From a virus, in IMG/VR virus record IMGVR_UViG_3300022690_000367: DNA of 38,299 bases, one strand, 5' to 3'. Positions 7,457-38,299 of this stretch are shown here, in pieces (within the stretch, counting starts at the first letter, position 1; each line of letters starts with the position of its first letter). The notes below the pieces were generated by a model. That model saw only the letters and a list, made by a program, of their open reading frames with translations. It was not told the DNA's origin and searched no databases. The translations under genes were made by a program, and so were the position numbers.

Positions 7457-7648
7457 TTAGTCGTTTCCTGTTTTCTTAACGCAATTTCCACACGCTCTAA
7501 CTTGAGGTTTATCAAAAGCTTCTGATGTTGTTAAAGTCTCTCTTCCACACAAACTTACTTGACCAGGTTTCGAGTCTGCATCAATCAAGAATGCGTGACT
7601 TGCTCGCTTCCAGTGACTACCTTGCCATTTAATTTTTTTATCGTTCAT
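7457..7648 (-). CDS. Hypothetical protein (63 aa, three Cys)
   Basis: ORF track. Confidence 0.5.
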   Translation of the reverse strand: MNDKKIKWQGSHWKRASHAFLIDADSKPGQVSLCGRETLTTSEAFDKPQVRACGNCVKKTGND

Positions 7649-7751
7649 AGTCTTTTCCTTCCTGTTCTTTATCGATTGATCGACAAATTAAATAACCTGG
7701 GATGTAGGTAACTAATACCATCCATACAATGAAAATTATCCAACCTGTCAT
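7638..7751 (-). CDS. Membrane micro-ORF, copy 1 (37 aa, MTGWIIFIVWMVLVTYIPGYLICRSIDKEQEGKDYER)
   Basis: Manual translation. Lies inside the 116-bp repeat and has one hydrophobic helix. Confidence 0.5.
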   Translation of the reverse strand: MTGWIIFIVWMVLVTYIPGYLICRSIDKEQEGKDYER

Positions 7752-7763
7752 TTTATATCTTTT
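7648..7763. repeat. 116-bp perfect direct repeat, copy 1
   Basis: Identical to 8005..8120 when read base by base. Confidence 0.95.
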
Positions 7764-7765
7764 CC

Positions 7766-8002
7766 TTATTTAATCCAGCTCAAAAATTCGTCTGTTTTGA
7801 TTGTGTGAGTGATTTTCTTTCTGGGCTCTTGGCGTTTTCTACCTGCTATGAAGTAGCCAATTAGACACCTTTCGCTTGCCATATAGAAAAAATCAAGTTC
7901 GTCTACAATGGCTGAACATCTGCAAAACTTTTTGATAAACTCTTCTTCTCGCTCGAACACTTGGCAAATATAAGAACTTAGTTTTTGTTGAAAGTTACTC
8001 AT
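7766..8002 (-). CDS. Hypothetical protein (78 aa) bracketed by the 116-bp repeats
   Basis: ORF track. Confidence 0.5.
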   Translation of the reverse strand: MSNFQQKLSSYICQVFEREEEFIKKFCRCSAIVDELDFFYMASERCLIGYFIAGRKRQEPRKKITHTIKTDEFLSWIK

Positions 8003-8003
8003 T

Positions 8004-8108
8004 TTAGTCTTTTCCTTCCTGTTCTTTATCGATTGATCGACAAATTAAATAACCTGGGATGTAGGTAACTAATACCATCCATACAATGAAAATTATCCAA
8101 CCTGTCAT
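8004..8108 (-). CDS. Membrane micro-ORF, copy 2 (34 aa, MTGWIIFIVWMVLVTYIPGYLICRSIDKEQEGKD)
   Basis: Manual translation. ATGA coupling to the stop of 8105..8329. Confidence 0.5.
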   Translation of the reverse strand: MTGWIIFIVWMVLVTYIPGYLICRSIDKEQEGKD

Positions 8109-8120
8109 TTTATATCTTTT
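8005..8120. repeat. 116-bp perfect direct repeat, copy 2
   Basis: Identical to 7648..7763. Confidence 0.95.
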
Positions 8121-8329
8121 ACTTGTTGTTTTGGTTTTACCCATTTAATTAAATAAGCCCAACCTATGGGATGAATAACAGTATTTCCACCAGCCCGGTA
8201 CCACTTGCCCCATCCTTCAGTATAGGAACCACGACATACAGTGATTGATCCGCCTATACCTCTTATTGCAACTATTACCATGTCAGAGTTTGGTGGTAAG
8301 TCAGTGCGCCATTCGTTCGAGTCTTTCAT
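8105..8329 (-). CDS. Hypothetical protein (74 aa)
   Basis: ORF track. Confidence 0.5.
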   Translation of the reverse strand: MKDSNEWRTDLPPNSDMVIVAIRGIGGSITVCRGSYTEGWGKWYRAGGNTVIHPIGWAYLIKWVKPKQQVKDIK

Positions 8330-8649
8330 TTATTAAACAATAAAAATGCTTTTGCGTAATTGGCTGGCTCTTCGTCTTTGACGCTATCTCTTGATATCTT
8401 CGTTTTGTTTTTGTTTTTACGGGCTAAGTCAATGACTTTTTGATTTTTGTAATCTTTGATTTTATTGATAGACTTTAAAATGTCTGATTCTAGCCACATA
8501 AATGACTCTCTTTTATTTCGGGTCGGACTTACTTTTCCGCTTACCAGCTCCAATTTACAGTAATTAGAGAAAGTTGAGTGCGCTAAGGATTCTAAACCTA
8601 AACCTTTGGTTAAAATCTGGATTGCTTGACTGGTTGTTACTGTCTTCAT
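8326..8649 (-). CDS. Hypothetical protein, possibly DNA-binding (107 aa; start trimmed)
   Basis: The ATG at 8649 is preceded by AAGAAGGA. The track start at 8688 lacks a ribosome-binding site. Confidence 0.45.
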   Translation of the reverse strand: MKTVTTSQAIQILTKGLGLESLAHSTFSNYCKLELVSGKVSPTRNKRESFMWLESDILKSINKIKDYKNQKVIDLARKNKNKTKISRDSVKDEEPANYAKAFLLFNK

Positions 8650-12809: not shown

Positions 12810-13021
12810 TGAGTAACCTTAAATATTTACTAATACTTGTATTGTCTAGTTGCGAACCATATACATCAAAAACGATAGAAGGAACTAACCTTTTATTAGA
12901 TGAGGTATGCATAAGGGGTGTGACTTATTATATTGGAGGTCGAATGCTCTCGCCAGAATATAATAATGATGGAAGTTTAATTCTATGTGAAAATAAACTT
13001 GATAAAAAGGAGAATAAATAA
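12809..13021 (+). CDS. Putative small lipoprotein (70 aa, GTG start)
   Basis: Lipobox-like LVLSSC after a short signal sequence. GGAG 8 nt upstream of the GTG. Confidence 0.45.
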   Translation: MSNLKYLLILVLSSCEPYTSKTIEGTNLLLDEVCIRGVTYYIGGRMLSPEYNNDGSLILCENKLDKKENK

Positions 13022-13209
13022 GATAATAGTAGGGCTGATTTAATTAGTTAGGTTTCGTAGCCTACATAATACACCTAAAGAAAGAGTTTACACATGTCGT
13101 TACTGGTCAATTTTCTTAGGTGGATTTTCTAGGTACGATGACGACAGTTGTAAGCTCTTTTTTATGCCTGTCAATAACCTTCCTGGTTATAGAGGTAGTT
13201 TTGAATAAT

Positions 13210-13285
13210 CGCGGTATAGTGTAGTCGGTTAGCACATGGTCCTTTGAAGTCCATAGGTTGGGTTCGAATCCCGATACCGCTGCCA
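13210..13285 (+). tRNA. tRNA-Gln (anticodon UUG), 76 nt with encoded CCA
   Basis: Hand-folded cloverleaf: D stem GTGT/GCAC, anticodon loop CTTTGAA, T arm TTGGG-TTCGAAT-CCCGA, acceptor 6 bp plus a C1:U72 mismatch, discriminator G73, then CCA. Confidence 0.8.
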
Positions 13286-13460
13286 TTCAAAGCAATAAGT
13301 GTTTATATGTATTTCAGAGTGACCAACCTTGATAATTTGGGTGTATCTGGGCAAAGCCACATTAAAGTTTATCGTTGGGTCTTACTGTGGCACAGCTAGC
13401 AAGTTAGATTATCTATCTTAGGCTTGTTAGTTGTTTGACCTCTCTAAACACTTCCTCAGA

Positions 13461-13702
13461 TAGTTAGTATAGAGATTCAAGCGGTGCTGAAAGTAGAAGC
13501 ACTGACTCTCGATAAGGTTAGATTGTCATAGCTGGTCGAGTCAACTTAATAAATAAGGTTGATTATGGTGGTCACTGAGCAGATTTACGCCAAACCATGA
13601 ACGGCTCTAGGTTCGATTCCTAGATTTACACTGGATATGTGGCATCGAGAACACTTAACCATAGCAGGATTAACGCCCTGCCTTGAATCTCTATACTAAC
13701 TA
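13461..13702. other. 242-bp non-coding element bounded by perfect 21-bp inverted repeats, containing a tRNA T-arm mimic
   Basis: TAGTTAGTATAGAGATTCAAG at 13461..13481 is the exact reverse complement of 13682..13702. The interior holds CTAGG-TTCGATT-CCTAG (13607..13623) and several hairpins. Confidence 0.8.
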
Positions 13703-13940
13703 AAGTCCTTATAAAGATTAATTCTTATCAGCAAAAATGAATCGACAATCATGCCAGATTTAAAATGGCATTAACTAAGGAAGAGTTAATTATAATCTAG
13801 CATACGGATACCCGCCCATGTCAATGAGTGCTAGTCCTGATTTAAAGAGCAAAAAGTACTCTGCCGTAATGGTAAGCCTGTAAGGGTTTAAAGAGGAAAT
13901 TGGGCCACTATTAACTAAATTTAATAACTGGAGATAAAAA

Positions 13941-14339
13941 ATGTTCAATTCAAAACTTAAAGCACAAAAAGAAGAGCTCGAAAAAGAAGTAAGGATGCTT
14001 AAATCAGAACTAGCCGACGAGACTATTAAAAACAGGCCCGAGAAAGAAATCAGATCATTAAAGAATGAATTGGCCGAAGTTGTGCAAAAGAAGAAAATGG
14101 AAGAAGATGATATTAAACATATGGTTAAAATCCATAAAGAGCGAAACGCCATTGAACTTGAAAAGAAAACCATGGAACTTGAGCGAGAAAAGCAGAACGA
14201 AGTTGCAGTCGTTAAAGATAATTACAAAGATAAAATGGAGGAGCGCTTGCAGTTTGAAGTAACCAACATGAAAGAAATGTATGGTCAGATTTTAGAACGG
14301 CTACCAAATGTCTCAGCAAGGTTAAAAGGAGATATTTAA
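13941..14339 (+). CDS. K/E-rich coiled-coil protein (132 aa)
   Basis: ORF track. GGAG Shine-Dalgarno sequence. The antisense ORF 13790..14173 is a shadow. Confidence 0.6.
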   Translation: MFNSKLKAQKEELEKEVRMLKSELADETIKNRPEKEIRSLKNELAEVVQKKKMEEDDIKHMVKIHKERNAIELEKKTMELEREKQNEVAVVKDNYKDKMEERLQFEVTNMKEMYGQILERLPNVSARLKGDI

Positions 14340-15050: not shown

Positions 15051-15167
15051 ATGCCTAAACAAATGATTGGCCCAAACTGGCGGGCAAGCGATAGAACCAT
15101 TAAAAGCTTGGTAAATGCCGGTTATACTGATGAGCAACGTAAGCGAATCTTACAGGAGCACTCATGA
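15051..15167 (+). CDS. 38-aa ORF homologous to the N-terminus of the 15661..16026 product (gene-fragment duplicate)
   Basis: IGPNWRASDRTIKSLVNAGYTDEQRKRI versus IDFKWRPAKKTSTSLENLGYTEEQRKAI gives 15 identities in 28 residues by hand alignment. ATGA coupling to the HNH gene. Confidence 0.5.
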   Translation: MPKQMIGPNWRASDRTIKSLVNAGYTDEQRKRILQEHS

Positions 15168-15661
15168 TTACGTACCAAATAGTTAAGGGTTTATTTAATT
15201 ACGAACCGGATAGCGGAATTTCAACTTGGAAAATAAAACCTTCTAGAGCTGTGAATGCCGGAGATATAGCTGGATCAATTAATTCTAAAGGTTATTTACA
15301 TACAAGGATAAGTGGAAAAGTTTATTTTAATCACCGAATATCCTTTTTATGGTATCACGGCTATCTACCAAAGTATGTTGACCATAAAGACACAATCCCG
15401 TTGCATAACTGGATCAGTAATCTCAGGGAGTGCTCACATTCTCAAAACAACTTTAATATCAAAATAAGCAAAAACAACAAGTCTGGTGTAAAAGGTGTTT
15501 GCTGGAATAAATCAGCTAAAAAGTGGCACGCTCAATTACAAGTTAACAGGAAATCAATACACCTTGGATTATTTGTAGATCTAAAAGAAGCAGAAAAAAC
15601 AATTAAGGCGGCCAGGTTAGAGCTTCATGGAGAATTTACTAATCATGGTAAATCTGAATAA
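15164..15661 (+). CDS. HNH (HNH_3-type) homing endonuclease with a C-terminal AP2 DNA-binding domain
   Basis: GYLHTRISGKVYFNHRISFLWYHG...VDHKD...NLRECSHSQN is the HNH_3 pattern. SGVKGVCWNKSAKKWHAQLQVNRKSIHLGLF...HGEF is the AP2 pattern. Confidence 0.8.
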   Translation: MITYQIVKGLFNYEPDSGISTWKIKPSRAVNAGDIAGSINSKGYLHTRISGKVYFNHRISFLWYHGYLPKYVDHKDTIPLHNWISNLRECSHSQNNFNIKISKNNKSGVKGVCWNKSAKKWHAQLQVNRKSIHLGLFVDLKEAEKTIKAARLELHGEFTNHGKSE

Positions 15662-23998: not shown

Positions 23999-24637
23999 TT
24001 ACTGCCTCAATTGATTGCTTGGTGTTGTTGTTTGGCCTGAAAGGATGCCGCTTTGAATTAACCCTTGAAGAACTCCACTAAATCCTTGCTGCCTTGCGTT
24101 TTCAGCACCAACTATACCACCAGCTTGAACCGCCCCAATATCTGTTAATAGACCGCTTATGTTTGATCCGACGCCTAACGCTGTATTCGCTTGGCTTTGT
24201 GCGATGCCTTGACCTATTCCTAATAATCCGAAAATATCTTGCCTTTGTCTATCAATAAGAGGTTGAGCTTGTAATAAAACATTGCTTGATAATTGCTGCA
24301 GGGTATCTCCAGCACTTAGTCGACCTCCAGCCGCCGCACTTGATAAAGTTTGTTGATTGGCATTTTCTAGAGCTAGTTGGAATAATGGATTGTTTTGTAA
24401 GAAATCAAACTGAGCCTGTGGATCGCCTAAAAACCCAGATAACCCTATACCTCTTTGGCCTAGCTCGCTGAAAGGTTCTAAAAAACCTAAACCTTGTTCC
24501 TGTGCGCGCCGCTGCTCATCAATCGCTAGCTGTGCGGCTCTCTCTTGTGCGCTACCCGCCCTTCTTGACGCTCTGCTTGCGCTTCTTGAGCTGATTATAG
24601 ATCCAACAACGACGGCCCCTGCTACCCATCCACTCAT
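23999..24637 (-). CDS. Internal virion protein candidate with an N-terminal hydrophobic segment, G/Q-rich (212 aa)
   Basis: MSGWVAGAVVVGSIISS hydrophobic start. ATGA coupling to the SET gene. Confidence 0.45.
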   Translation of the reverse strand: MSGWVAGAVVVGSIISSRSASRASRRAGSAQERAAQLAIDEQRRAQEQGLGFLEPFSELGQRGIGLSGFLGDPQAQFDFLQNNPLFQLALENANQQTLSSAAAGGRLSAGDTLQQLSSNVLLQAQPLIDRQRQDIFGLLGIGQGIAQSQANTALGVGSNISGLLTDIGAVQAGGIVGAENARQQGFSGVLQGLIQSGILSGQTTTPSNQLRQ

Positions 24638-25485
24638 AATAAGTCACCACTACGCTCTCTAAAATTAAGTACATCTCTATAATTTATCGTTATCTCTTCG
24701 TTTTCCCTGATGTCTGAGTTTGCGACAAAATAAAACATATCTTTTTCATAAAAAGGAACGCTATTGGCGTAAAACGCATGATTTGAATACCTGCCTGCAA
24801 TTGTTCTCTTTTTACCTATTCTGGCCGGGCAGATTATCTCCCCTTTATTTATTTGTTTTTTTGTAAAGAGTCCGATCCCGCTTAATTTTGATTCCTTTTT
24901 ATAAATATATTCATAGCCAAGCGGCATATCAACAACATCATTTGCTGTAACCATCTCATCCATCTGTTCTTGGTTTATTCCTAACTGCGATAAAAACTTA
25001 TTGTAATCTAGGTTATTCAATTCTTTATAGAAACTGTCATACTCCTCATAAGTTAATACAGAAGTATAATCTAACATCTTATTTAGTGGGACATTTTCAG
25101 GAACTTGATTGACCGTCATCCAAACAGTGTCGCTTATAGCTAATCCAGCCTGTCTTTTGCCAGACTTAGCTGATATTACATTAAATCCCTCATAAGTATT
25201 CTTTGGACCATCTGCTGAAATTATTGTAATTTCACCGCTAACCATCATTTCAATATGATCAAACTTATATATTCGACCTGTTATTAAAGCGCCCGCTGGT
25301 ATTGTAATTTGTCTACAATAGAGACCACCTGAATAATATTCTTTTAGCTGGTAGTCTTCATCGGTTAATTGGGGAAGTTTTTTAAGTTCAGATTCTAATT
25401 TATCAAACAAAGTTCTACACTTAACAGCCGGTAAGTTATCGAATTGATCTATTATTCTCATAATAGTTTTATTTTCTTCAGTCAT
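24634..25485 (-). CDS. Cupin-like N-terminal region fused to a C-terminal SET-domain (lysine methyltransferase fold) protein
   Basis: C-terminus SGIGLFTKKQINKGEII...GRYSNHAFYANS...IRENEEITINY matches the SET motifs GxG / NHSxxPN / GEEITxxY (compare chlorella virus vSET). Confidence 0.6.
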   Translation of the reverse strand: MTEENKTIMRIIDQFDNLPAVKCRTLFDKLESELKKLPQLTDEDYQLKEYYSGGLYCRQITIPAGALITGRIYKFDHIEMMVSGEITIISADGPKNTYEGFNVISAKSGKRQAGLAISDTVWMTVNQVPENVPLNKMLDYTSVLTYEEYDSFYKELNNLDYNKFLSQLGINQEQMDEMVTANDVVDMPLGYEYIYKKESKLSGIGLFTKKQINKGEIICPARIGKKRTIAGRYSNHAFYANSVPFYEKDMFYFVANSDIRENEEITINYRDVLNFRERSGDLL

Positions 25486-37950: not shown

Positions 37951-38299
37951 AAATCCTCATGCCAATTAACATTAACCGACAAACCTTCACCATCAGTCAC
38001 TCGAAGTATATCTCCGGTATCTATGATAATGGTTCCTTTCTCAAGATTTGGTAGAAGCTTAAAGTGTTTAGCTATTGCTATAGCATCTGATTCCTCTATA
38101 TAAATTGAATCGACATCTACTACACCTAACGCTAAATTGTTTGAGTTAGGTGTAGCGCATGTAATATCCTCATCACTCCACTTATGCTTTGTTATATCGA
38201 AACCGCTGCATTGAAGGACATGAGAGACATCTTTATCTAGAACAATATTAAATCCGTTAGGGATGACGCTTATTGTCTTTACTCTTTTGCATTGTCCGT
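37947..38299 (-). CDS. Hypothetical protein, 3' part of the junction-spanning 132-aa ORF
   Basis: Manual translation ends ...NVNWHEDL, with TGA at 37947..37949 overlapping the ATG of the next gene (ATGA coupling). Confidence 0.55.
   Translation of the reverse strand, partial: GQCKRVKTISVIPNGFNIVLDKDVSHVLQCSGFDITKHKWSDEDITCATPNSNNLALGVVDVDSIYIEESDAIAIAKHFKLLPNLEKGTIIIDTGDILRVTDGEGLSVNVNWHEDL
38156..38299. repeat. Terminal direct repeat, copy 2 (exact duplicate of 1..144)
   Basis: Identical to 1..144. Confidence 0.95.

Follow-up and report, generated by a model that had tools for sequence, protein, structure and literature searches.

What kind of element carries a perfect inverted repeat at its ends and a fragment of a tRNA between them? 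The question is raised by a 242-bp segment (13461–13702) in a 38,299-nt stretch of phage DNA, which was analysed over its whole length and is referred to here as the window. The initial annotation offered three readings of the segment: an RNA with a long terminal stem and a tRNA-like module, as in bacterial Y RNA; a DNA segment inverted by a tyrosine recombinase; and a miniature inverted-repeat element (MITE). The two ends of the window (1–144 and 38156–38299) are identical, which indicates a circular or terminally overlapping contig and a genome of about 38,155 bp. The capsid and portal proteins of the phage are of the SU10 type and its large terminase is P22/Sf6-like. By exact-protein look-ups the phage was also recovered from one JGI contig and two Logan assemblies, and the contigs spanning the element are L025/L028 and L029. 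The features discussed below are collected in Table 1.

Table 1. Features of the element, of the surrounding non-coding region and of the recombinase gene, in window coordinates
Feature	Position	Strand	Description
Sigma-70-like promoter TTGATA-17-GATAAT	12999–13027	+	10/12 in the promoter scan; head of the island; putative function
Long hairpin resembling a terminator, with a U run after it ('stem A' analogue)	13078–13163	+	Nearly identical in L095
Slot 1	13198–13295	+	tRNA-Gln(UUG), 13210–13285, inside a 9-bp leader/trailer helix
Conserved 5' flank (leader) of slot 2, TTGTTTGACC..CTAAACACTTCCTCAGA	13431–13460	+	
Left arm	13461–13481	+	5' strand of the 21-bp leader/trailer stem; exact inverted repeat, covariation
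Hairpin GGTGCTG..AGCACTG	13483–13504	+	Predicted in both the MFE and the centroid fold; alignable with the canonical D arm of L090, TAGCTCAATTGGAAGAGC
Canonical T arm CTAGG-TTCGATT-CCTAG	13607–13623	+	Best-preserved tRNA part; forms in every fold
Right arm (trailer)	13682–13702	+	3' strand of the stem; exact inverted repeat
Conserved 3' flank, AAGTCCTTATAAAGATTAATTCTTATCAGCAAAAATGAATCGA	13703–13745	+	Also in L090, L092, L093 and L094
Tyrosine recombinase, catalytic domain only	5308–5973	−	221 aa, PF00589

The left arm (TAGTTAGTATAGAGATTCAAG) is the exact reverse complement of the right arm, and 200 nt lie between the two. When the window was searched for the 21-mer with three mismatches allowed, the two arms were the sole matches, with none expected from shuffled sequences, and no other perfect long inverted repeat exists in the 38,299 nt. 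The 21/21 repeat described in the initial annotation is thus real and unique in the window. Two further statements made there also hold: the canonical T arm is present, and there is no credible open reading frame, nothing longer than 25 codons being found within or across the element. A strict T-arm motif scan of 1.55 Mb of fetched DNA returned almost exclusively real tRNAs and tRNA-like elements, with about two matches unexplained, so that the chance occurrence of a T arm in a given 200-nt stretch is very unlikely. A 23-mer comprising this T arm and the adjoining acceptor strand also forms the end of a phage tRNA-Phe in contig L001, its only viral match. The hairpin at 13483–13504 is probably the remnant of a D arm, the homology being drawn from a single pairwise alignment, with L090. 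Folding of the whole element gives z = -5.96, which is owed to the terminal stem; the interior (13482–13681) folded alone gives z = -1.55 on the + strand and -0.90 on the - strand, and the additional interior hairpins that had been proposed are therefore not above chance. Two copies of AGATTTAC do exist as reported, at a number that chance would supply in a segment of 242 nt. The folding energy is lower for the + strand (-87.1 kcal/mol) than for the - strand (-76.9 kcal/mol), which supports an RNA of the + strand.

No catalogued RNA family accounts for the element. Rfam applied to the whole window at gathering thresholds assigned no known family to it, and a cmscan of 13100–14000 at E<=10 returned the tRNA-Gln and chance matches only. 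The comparison with tRNA-like, Y_RNA and YrlA models suggested in the initial annotation was carried out in this form, and neither these models nor those of tmRNA, group I introns or ribozymes matched the element, even at E<=10. Searches of the loci of related phages, with the gathering thresholds as well as with E<=10, likewise assigned the element to no known family. Besides the tRNA-Gln, no second tRNA was called by the Rfam tRNA model (RF00005) at E<=10 or by ARAGORN with default settings, in agreement with the earlier view that this is not a tRNA gene. Relaxed ARAGORN runs (70–80% thresholds, introns, permuted tmRNA) produced poor candidates, for example a 'tRNA-Arg' with a 214-nt intron that ignores the repeat boundaries. 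A tmRNA was likewise rejected: ARAGORN and Rfam find none in the window, and the one permuted call at the 70% threshold is spurious. The related locus L093 scores 11.6 bits on the tmRNA model, against a gathering score of 47. Comparison of 13300–13900 with GenBank phages by blastn gave no match, and no description of this arrangement was found in the literature.

The surroundings of the element are more informative. There is a reasonable case for regarding 13021–13941 as a tRNA and small-RNA island of about 0.9 kb in which the element forms the second tRNA slot. The promoter-like site at its head lies in a region that aligns at about 90% with the related phage L095, where TTGATA-17-TAAAAT is found at the same place; the promoter scan as a whole returned four matches against 4.0 expected, that is, chance level. 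Downstream of this site the segment 13025–13170 folds with z = -3.89, and its long hairpin is possibly the end of a leader or of a small RNA. As a whole, 13025–13170 could be a small-RNA unit that follows the promoter-like site, and it is about 90% conserved in L095. Analogous hairpins of 26–31 bp, each with three to seven G.U pairs and followed by a T run, are present in L002, L014, L094 and L093. The tRNA-Gln named in the initial annotation upstream of the element is genuine, as it is called by ARAGORN and scores 52.7 bits on the Rfam model. The 9-bp helix that frames it (13198–13206 with 13287–13295) appears in both the MFE and the centroid structures. The leader of the second slot is nearly identical in L095, directly upstream of a tRNA-Gln of that phage, and is partly kept in L090.

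The first relatives (L002–L024) were found through the downstream ORF 13941–14339 and do not resemble the element in sequence; the loci that proved decisive were obtained by protein searches in a larger collection. One of these, L090, encodes a homologue of ORF 13941–14339 that is 73% identical and carries a homologue of the element at 1631–1842, with arms TAGTTAGTATAGAGTTTCAAGC and GCTTGAAATTCTATACTAATTA. The right arm and 3' flank of the window are about 89% identical to those of L090, and the interiors are unalignable. In comparison to the window, the L090 stem has G.U pairs at positions 3 and 14 and a compensatory swap from A-U to U-A at position 15. At the 5' end of its interior lie an acceptor strand and a canonical D arm, and at the 3' end come a degenerate T arm and the 3' acceptor strand, which runs on into the long stem. 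A shorter version in L093 (2574–2682) has a 13-bp stem around an 83-nt tRNA-like RNA. This payload keeps an acceptor stem and the T arm GAGAG-TTCGATT-CTTTC, with the same loop as in the window, and folds into a compact three-way tRNA-like structure on the 13-bp stem (z = -6.2). In L094 (2542–2670) a stem of 18–20 bp surrounds unrecognisable sequence. The outer 12 bp of the L093 and L094 stems are common with the window, and the inner halves differ yet pair; the outer 12 nt of the left arm, TAGTTAGTATAG, are identical in L090, L093 and L094.

In two other phages the slot is occupied by a real tRNA. Between L095 and the window the promoter, the stem A hairpin and the 5' flank are about 90% identical. 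Its first slot holds a tRNA-Met where the window has the tRNA-Gln, and its second slot, exactly at the place of the element, holds a bona fide tRNA-Gln (50.1 bits) within a leader/trailer helix of 7–8 bp. In L092, a contig that ends inside a tRNA and so has no sequence upstream of it, a real tRNA-Ser(GCU) is present; immediately after its CCA come the outer half of the right arm and then the conserved flank.

Among the other relatives, L002 and L014 have, in a non-coding region of this kind, long stems that contain G.U pairs on the + strand. The stem of L014 encloses a T-arm mimic, and the slot of L002 contains unrecognisable sequence with no tRNA part kept. Degenerate pattern scans gave mostly chance matches and one true member, L070, in which a homologous 23-bp stem encloses a payload that scores 35.7 bits on the Rfam tRNA model and has 48 nt in place of the anticodon loop. 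These three loci are tied to the window via L090, which has arms in common with the window and a terminator/GTGTCT block in common with all three. A weak local similarity (p = 0.0065 and 0.027) also links them to the window, and nhmmer profiles of their arms did not find the window arms. An alignment to L014 749–1001 made by eye was rejected (z = 0), as were local alignments of the whole region, which were not significant.

Seven of these sequences, all from marine phage contigs, were placed in one register for analysis of covariation (the window, L090, L093, L094, L014, L002 and L070). In this set 95.7% of the cells are paired, a figure that is partly built in as each stem was picked as an inverted repeat, and both sides have changed in 13 of 20 pairs, a count that depends on the register of the alignment. 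The covariation score was reached by 0 of 500 shuffles, and slid registers are only 29–42% paired. Positions 2, 4 and 7–10 of the stem are invariant and position 14 is unpaired in four sequences. At position 3 the + strand has G.U in five of the seven sequences and G-C in two. Since G.U reads as a pair only in RNA of the + strand, the stem is taken to be formed by + strand RNA. The window stem has neither a G.U pair nor a mismatch and, considered alone, would fit a DNA-level repeat or a recent event equally. A leader/trailer helix was understood here as a continuous, covarying duplex of about 20 bp or more between the two flanks of a stable RNA, and in the window such a duplex is found as a perfect helix of 21 bp.

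Taken together, the helix is conserved and covaries, the occupant of the slot varies from a real tRNA to a remnant, and there is a single copy of the element, at one syntenic site. We consider it fairly probable that the element is a tRNA slot, the arms of which are a leader and a trailer that pair into a conserved RNA stem around a degenerate tRNA. The island would be transcribed rightward, probably from the promoter-like site at its head, and the two 21-nt arms would pair in the RNA to give a 21-bp helix that encloses whatever the slot holds. Here the payload would be a tRNA-derived sequence of about 200 nt of which only the T arm has stayed intact, with perhaps a remnant of the D arm; it would be a pseudo-tRNA or a tRNA-like RNA and not a decoding tRNA. 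Helix and flanks are the conserved part, and would therefore be the functional part. The most likely role of the helix is that of a double-stranded processing stalk, a substrate for an RNase III-type enzyme, whose cut would free the slot RNA from a long early transcript and away from the mRNA that starts at ORF 13941. Processing by RNase III is probable, judging from a perfect helix of at least 20 bp; a perfect 21-bp duplex between the sequences on either side of a stable RNA is the classic shape of such a stalk. The surviving tRNA parts vary from phage to phage (the T arm in the window, acceptor and D arm in L090, acceptor and T arm in L093, none in L094 and L002), which agrees with a payload that decays while its frame is conserved. 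The pattern of surviving parts is consistent with neutral decay, and the payload may be simply junk. From the comparison of sequences, the presence of different tRNAs and relics in the same slots suggests that marine SU10-like podoviruses exchange tRNA cassettes as modules.

The arrangement is of a known kind, a cluster of phage tRNA genes that has precursor helices and relics of tRNAs, in which the helix is conserved and uncatalogued. As in other phage tRNA clusters, tRNAs and small stable RNAs appear to be co-transcribed in a non-coding island and flanked by leader and trailer structure, and homing-endonuclease-type genes are near (an HNH gene at 15164–15661 in the window and T5orf172 in L070 and L090). 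In the tRNA region of T4, RNase III has been reported to cut the precursor near the tRNA-Gln. The difference is that here a specific leader/trailer helix of 20–23 bp is conserved and covaries, and is kept despite the decay of the tRNA. The stalks of rRNA operons offer a second likeness: these are long helices formed by the flanks of 16S and 23S rRNA and cleaved by RNase III, and there too a long duplex of 5' and 3' flanks encloses a stable RNA within a longer transcript. Unlike rRNA, the enclosed RNA here is of about 85–200 nt and tRNA-derived, and the cleavage is putative. The payload itself resembles the tRNA pseudogenes and relics of phages in having a T arm without a functional cloverleaf and in being rejected by tRNA finders; it differs from them in being framed by a conserved covarying helix, with homologous slots at different stages of decay. 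The analysis thus defines a conserved, uncatalogued RNA helix with a putative processing role, and yields a small set of tRNA-like RNAs and of tRNAs with large insertions in the anticodon loop.

An alternative at the RNA level is that the payload is a functional tRNA-mimic RNA similar to Yrn1 of D. radiodurans, with the stem starting from the acceptor position and followed by D-like, long central and T arms. Its elbow would recruit or titrate a host factor (a modification enzyme, RNase P, a tRNA-targeting defence nuclease or a Ro-like protein), and the stem would be part of the mature RNA. We regard this as unlikely. It is favoured by the recurrence of T or D arms inside the long stems of the window, L090, L093, L014 and L070 and by the three-way fold of L093, but the tRNA parts differ by phage and are absent from L094 and L002, a pattern of decay and not of a conserved effector module, and the interior of the window element alone is not significantly structured. 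That the long-stem tRNA-like RNAs of these five phages are functional, fast-evolving mimics, with a stem that belongs to the mature RNA and binds a specific protein and a variable head that titrates or decoys host tRNA-binding factors, for instance tRNA-targeting defence nucleases, is to our mind rather improbable. YrlA and Yrn1 have a terminal stem of the 5' and 3' ends, at the acceptor position in Yrn1, and a tRNA-like module with a T arm, and GNCGAA(N0-1)G is a motif in the Ro60-binding strand of bacterial Y RNA (PMC4201824). The order of the modules relative to the ends in Yrn1 matches that of the element. In YrlA, however, the T arm is 5' of the D arm and the acceptor is a closed stem-loop, whereas in the element the D-arm remnant is 5' of the T arm, and the acceptor stem of L090 and L093 is continuous with the terminal stem. 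Also unlike Y RNAs, the element has no Ro-binding helix and no GNCGAA(N)G motif on either strand of 13461–13702 (regular-expression search), in addition to the lack of Rfam matches described above. Bacterial Y RNAs lie beside a gene for Ro60 (Rsr, with a TROVE domain). No Ro60 gene was recognised here, as none of the 30 ORFs compared with Pfam or PHROGs, among them all ten of at least 283 aa, contains a TROVE domain; Ro60 is a protein of about 500 aa. The first of the earlier readings was partly right, as to the kind of object, an RNA that has a long terminal stem and a tRNA-like module, in view of the covarying stem in seven phages and of relatives whose slots hold tRNAs or their derivatives; membership of the YrlA or Y RNA families is rejected, given the absent Rfam match, TROVE gene and motif and the reversed order of the arms.

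A perfect inverted repeat around a tRNA fragment is striking, and can be mistaken for a switch or a transposon. In the former case the 221-aa tyrosine recombinase would flip 13482–13681 and thereby switch a hybrid promoter between rightward and leftward, and inversion predicts a junction of GAGATTCAAG with GCAGGGCGTT together with its partner. Like fimS with FimB/FimE and other invertons, the element has short inverted repeats around a few hundred bp (21 bp around 200 bp), and the genome encodes a small recombinase of FimB/E-like size that consists of the catalytic domain only (PF00589 at aa 7–210 of 221). An 11-mer of the arms is found one more time, 29 nt before the start codon of the recombinase, and a weak promoter match (9/12) spans the junction of the interior and the right arm. 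We nevertheless find inversion very unlikely, since a single orientation was seen, with 100% identity, in the three spanning assemblies (the window, the JGI 3300022707 contig and the Logan SRR7467839 contig). The Logan contig L029 crosses the boundaries of both arms without a break; the opposite orientation is therefore not abundant there, at the level of an assembly that could miss a rare one. Unlike in invertons, the arms of relatives are imperfect, with mismatches of the G.U type, and the interior is hypervariable with no conserved internal promoter, being unalignable between the window and L090 and replaced by a plain tRNA-Gln in L095; the promoter match belongs to a scan at chance level. 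The recombinase is unlinked to the element, as L032 encodes one that is 80% identical in a fetched 20.7-kb locus with no tRNA and no comparable inverted repeat. L031 and L032 also have the motif TGTAGAG[A/G]TTCA conserved ahead of their recombinase genes; the motif thus belongs to the upstream region of this gene, the match to the arm being weak. The invertible switch of the initial annotation is accordingly unsupported, and the MITE fares no better. An insertion beside the tRNA gene, possibly with duplication of a TA target, would account for perfect terminal inverted repeats on 242 bp with no ORF and for the TA at both outer ends. It is highly improbable, in that the 21-mer has no other exact copy in 2.9 M viral contigs (IMG/VR), 241 M JGI metagenome records and 185,579 species genomes (a collection of one genome per species), a search that diverged copies would escape; the homologues occupy one and the same syntenic site, where the flanks to either side are conserved, the arms covary rather than being identical copies, and no transposase is encoded among the 30 ORFs scanned. 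A phage attachment site with the T arm as its core, for integration into a host tRNA gene at the T loop, and with the arms as accessory binding sites, seems scarcely credible. T stem-loops are classic core sites of tRNA-targeting integrases, a tyrosine recombinase is present, and the distances from the T loop to the ends of the arms (about 154 and 87 nt) resemble the arm lengths of lambda attP. Against this, the 23-mer of T arm and acceptor has no match in the 185,579 species genomes and its only viral match is the phage tRNA-Phe, the recombinase is encoded at a distance of 7.5 kb and has no arm-binding domain, and the same slot holds whole tRNAs in relatives.

Close variants of this phage are not on record, as the 90%-identity clusters of the flanking ORFs have one member each. 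The Logan assemblies of two runs break at 13134–13163 and at 13716–13745, both being 30-nt (k-1)-mer overlaps. The two breakpoints flank the tRNA-Gln and the element and lie inside framework segments that are conserved in related phages, which suggests co-occurring phages with the same frame and different cassettes.

Near-perfect tRNAs with enlarged anticodon arms were observed at 8450–8584 in L020 and at 2281–2392 (- strand) in L070, with Rfam scores of 52.3 and 35.7 bits. In these, 69 and 48 nt, respectively, replace the anticodon loop, and ARAGORN calls neither. The L020 tRNA is flanked by direct repeats, AGGCCTGGCATGAC.GTCTA. The insertions could be intron-like or replacements of the anticodon arm in phage tRNA genes; in the former case L020 and L070 could represent intron-containing tRNAs that are matured by an unknown bacterial or phage splicing route.

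The recombinase family comprises 24 homologues of 179–228 aa, which occur in related phage contigs of 30–54 kb and in chromosomal contigs of Oleiphilus. The Oleiphilus homologues adjoin dsbA-like, ftsH and IS91 genes, and the family, to which L033–L037 also belong, is consistently of about 220 aa and consists of the catalytic domain only. The 11-mer mentioned above, TTGAATCTCTA, is located at 6002–6012 and, within the arms, at 13470–13480 and 13683–13693. Downstream of the recombinase gene there is a consensus promoter, TTGACA-16-TATAAT, at 5251–5278 on the - strand. The motif CAAATAGTTTG occurs twice around it, at about 5240–5300; the one upstream is palindromic (TCAAATAGTTTGA), and the other (TCAAATAGTTTGG) occupies the spacer of the promoter. 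Both are probably operators.

Three other observations concern the rest of the genome. In the leftward early region there is a 123-nt direct repeat (7648–7770 and 8005–8127, 98% identity), which coincides with a Logan break near 8091–8120. The leftward gene block also contains a tandem repeat of 9-nt units similar to ATCATAGCA, about 63 nt in length (2591–2653). Within the structural module, a 283-aa ORF on the - strand (24634–25485) has a SET domain of the lysine methyltransferase type (E = 1.8e-7).
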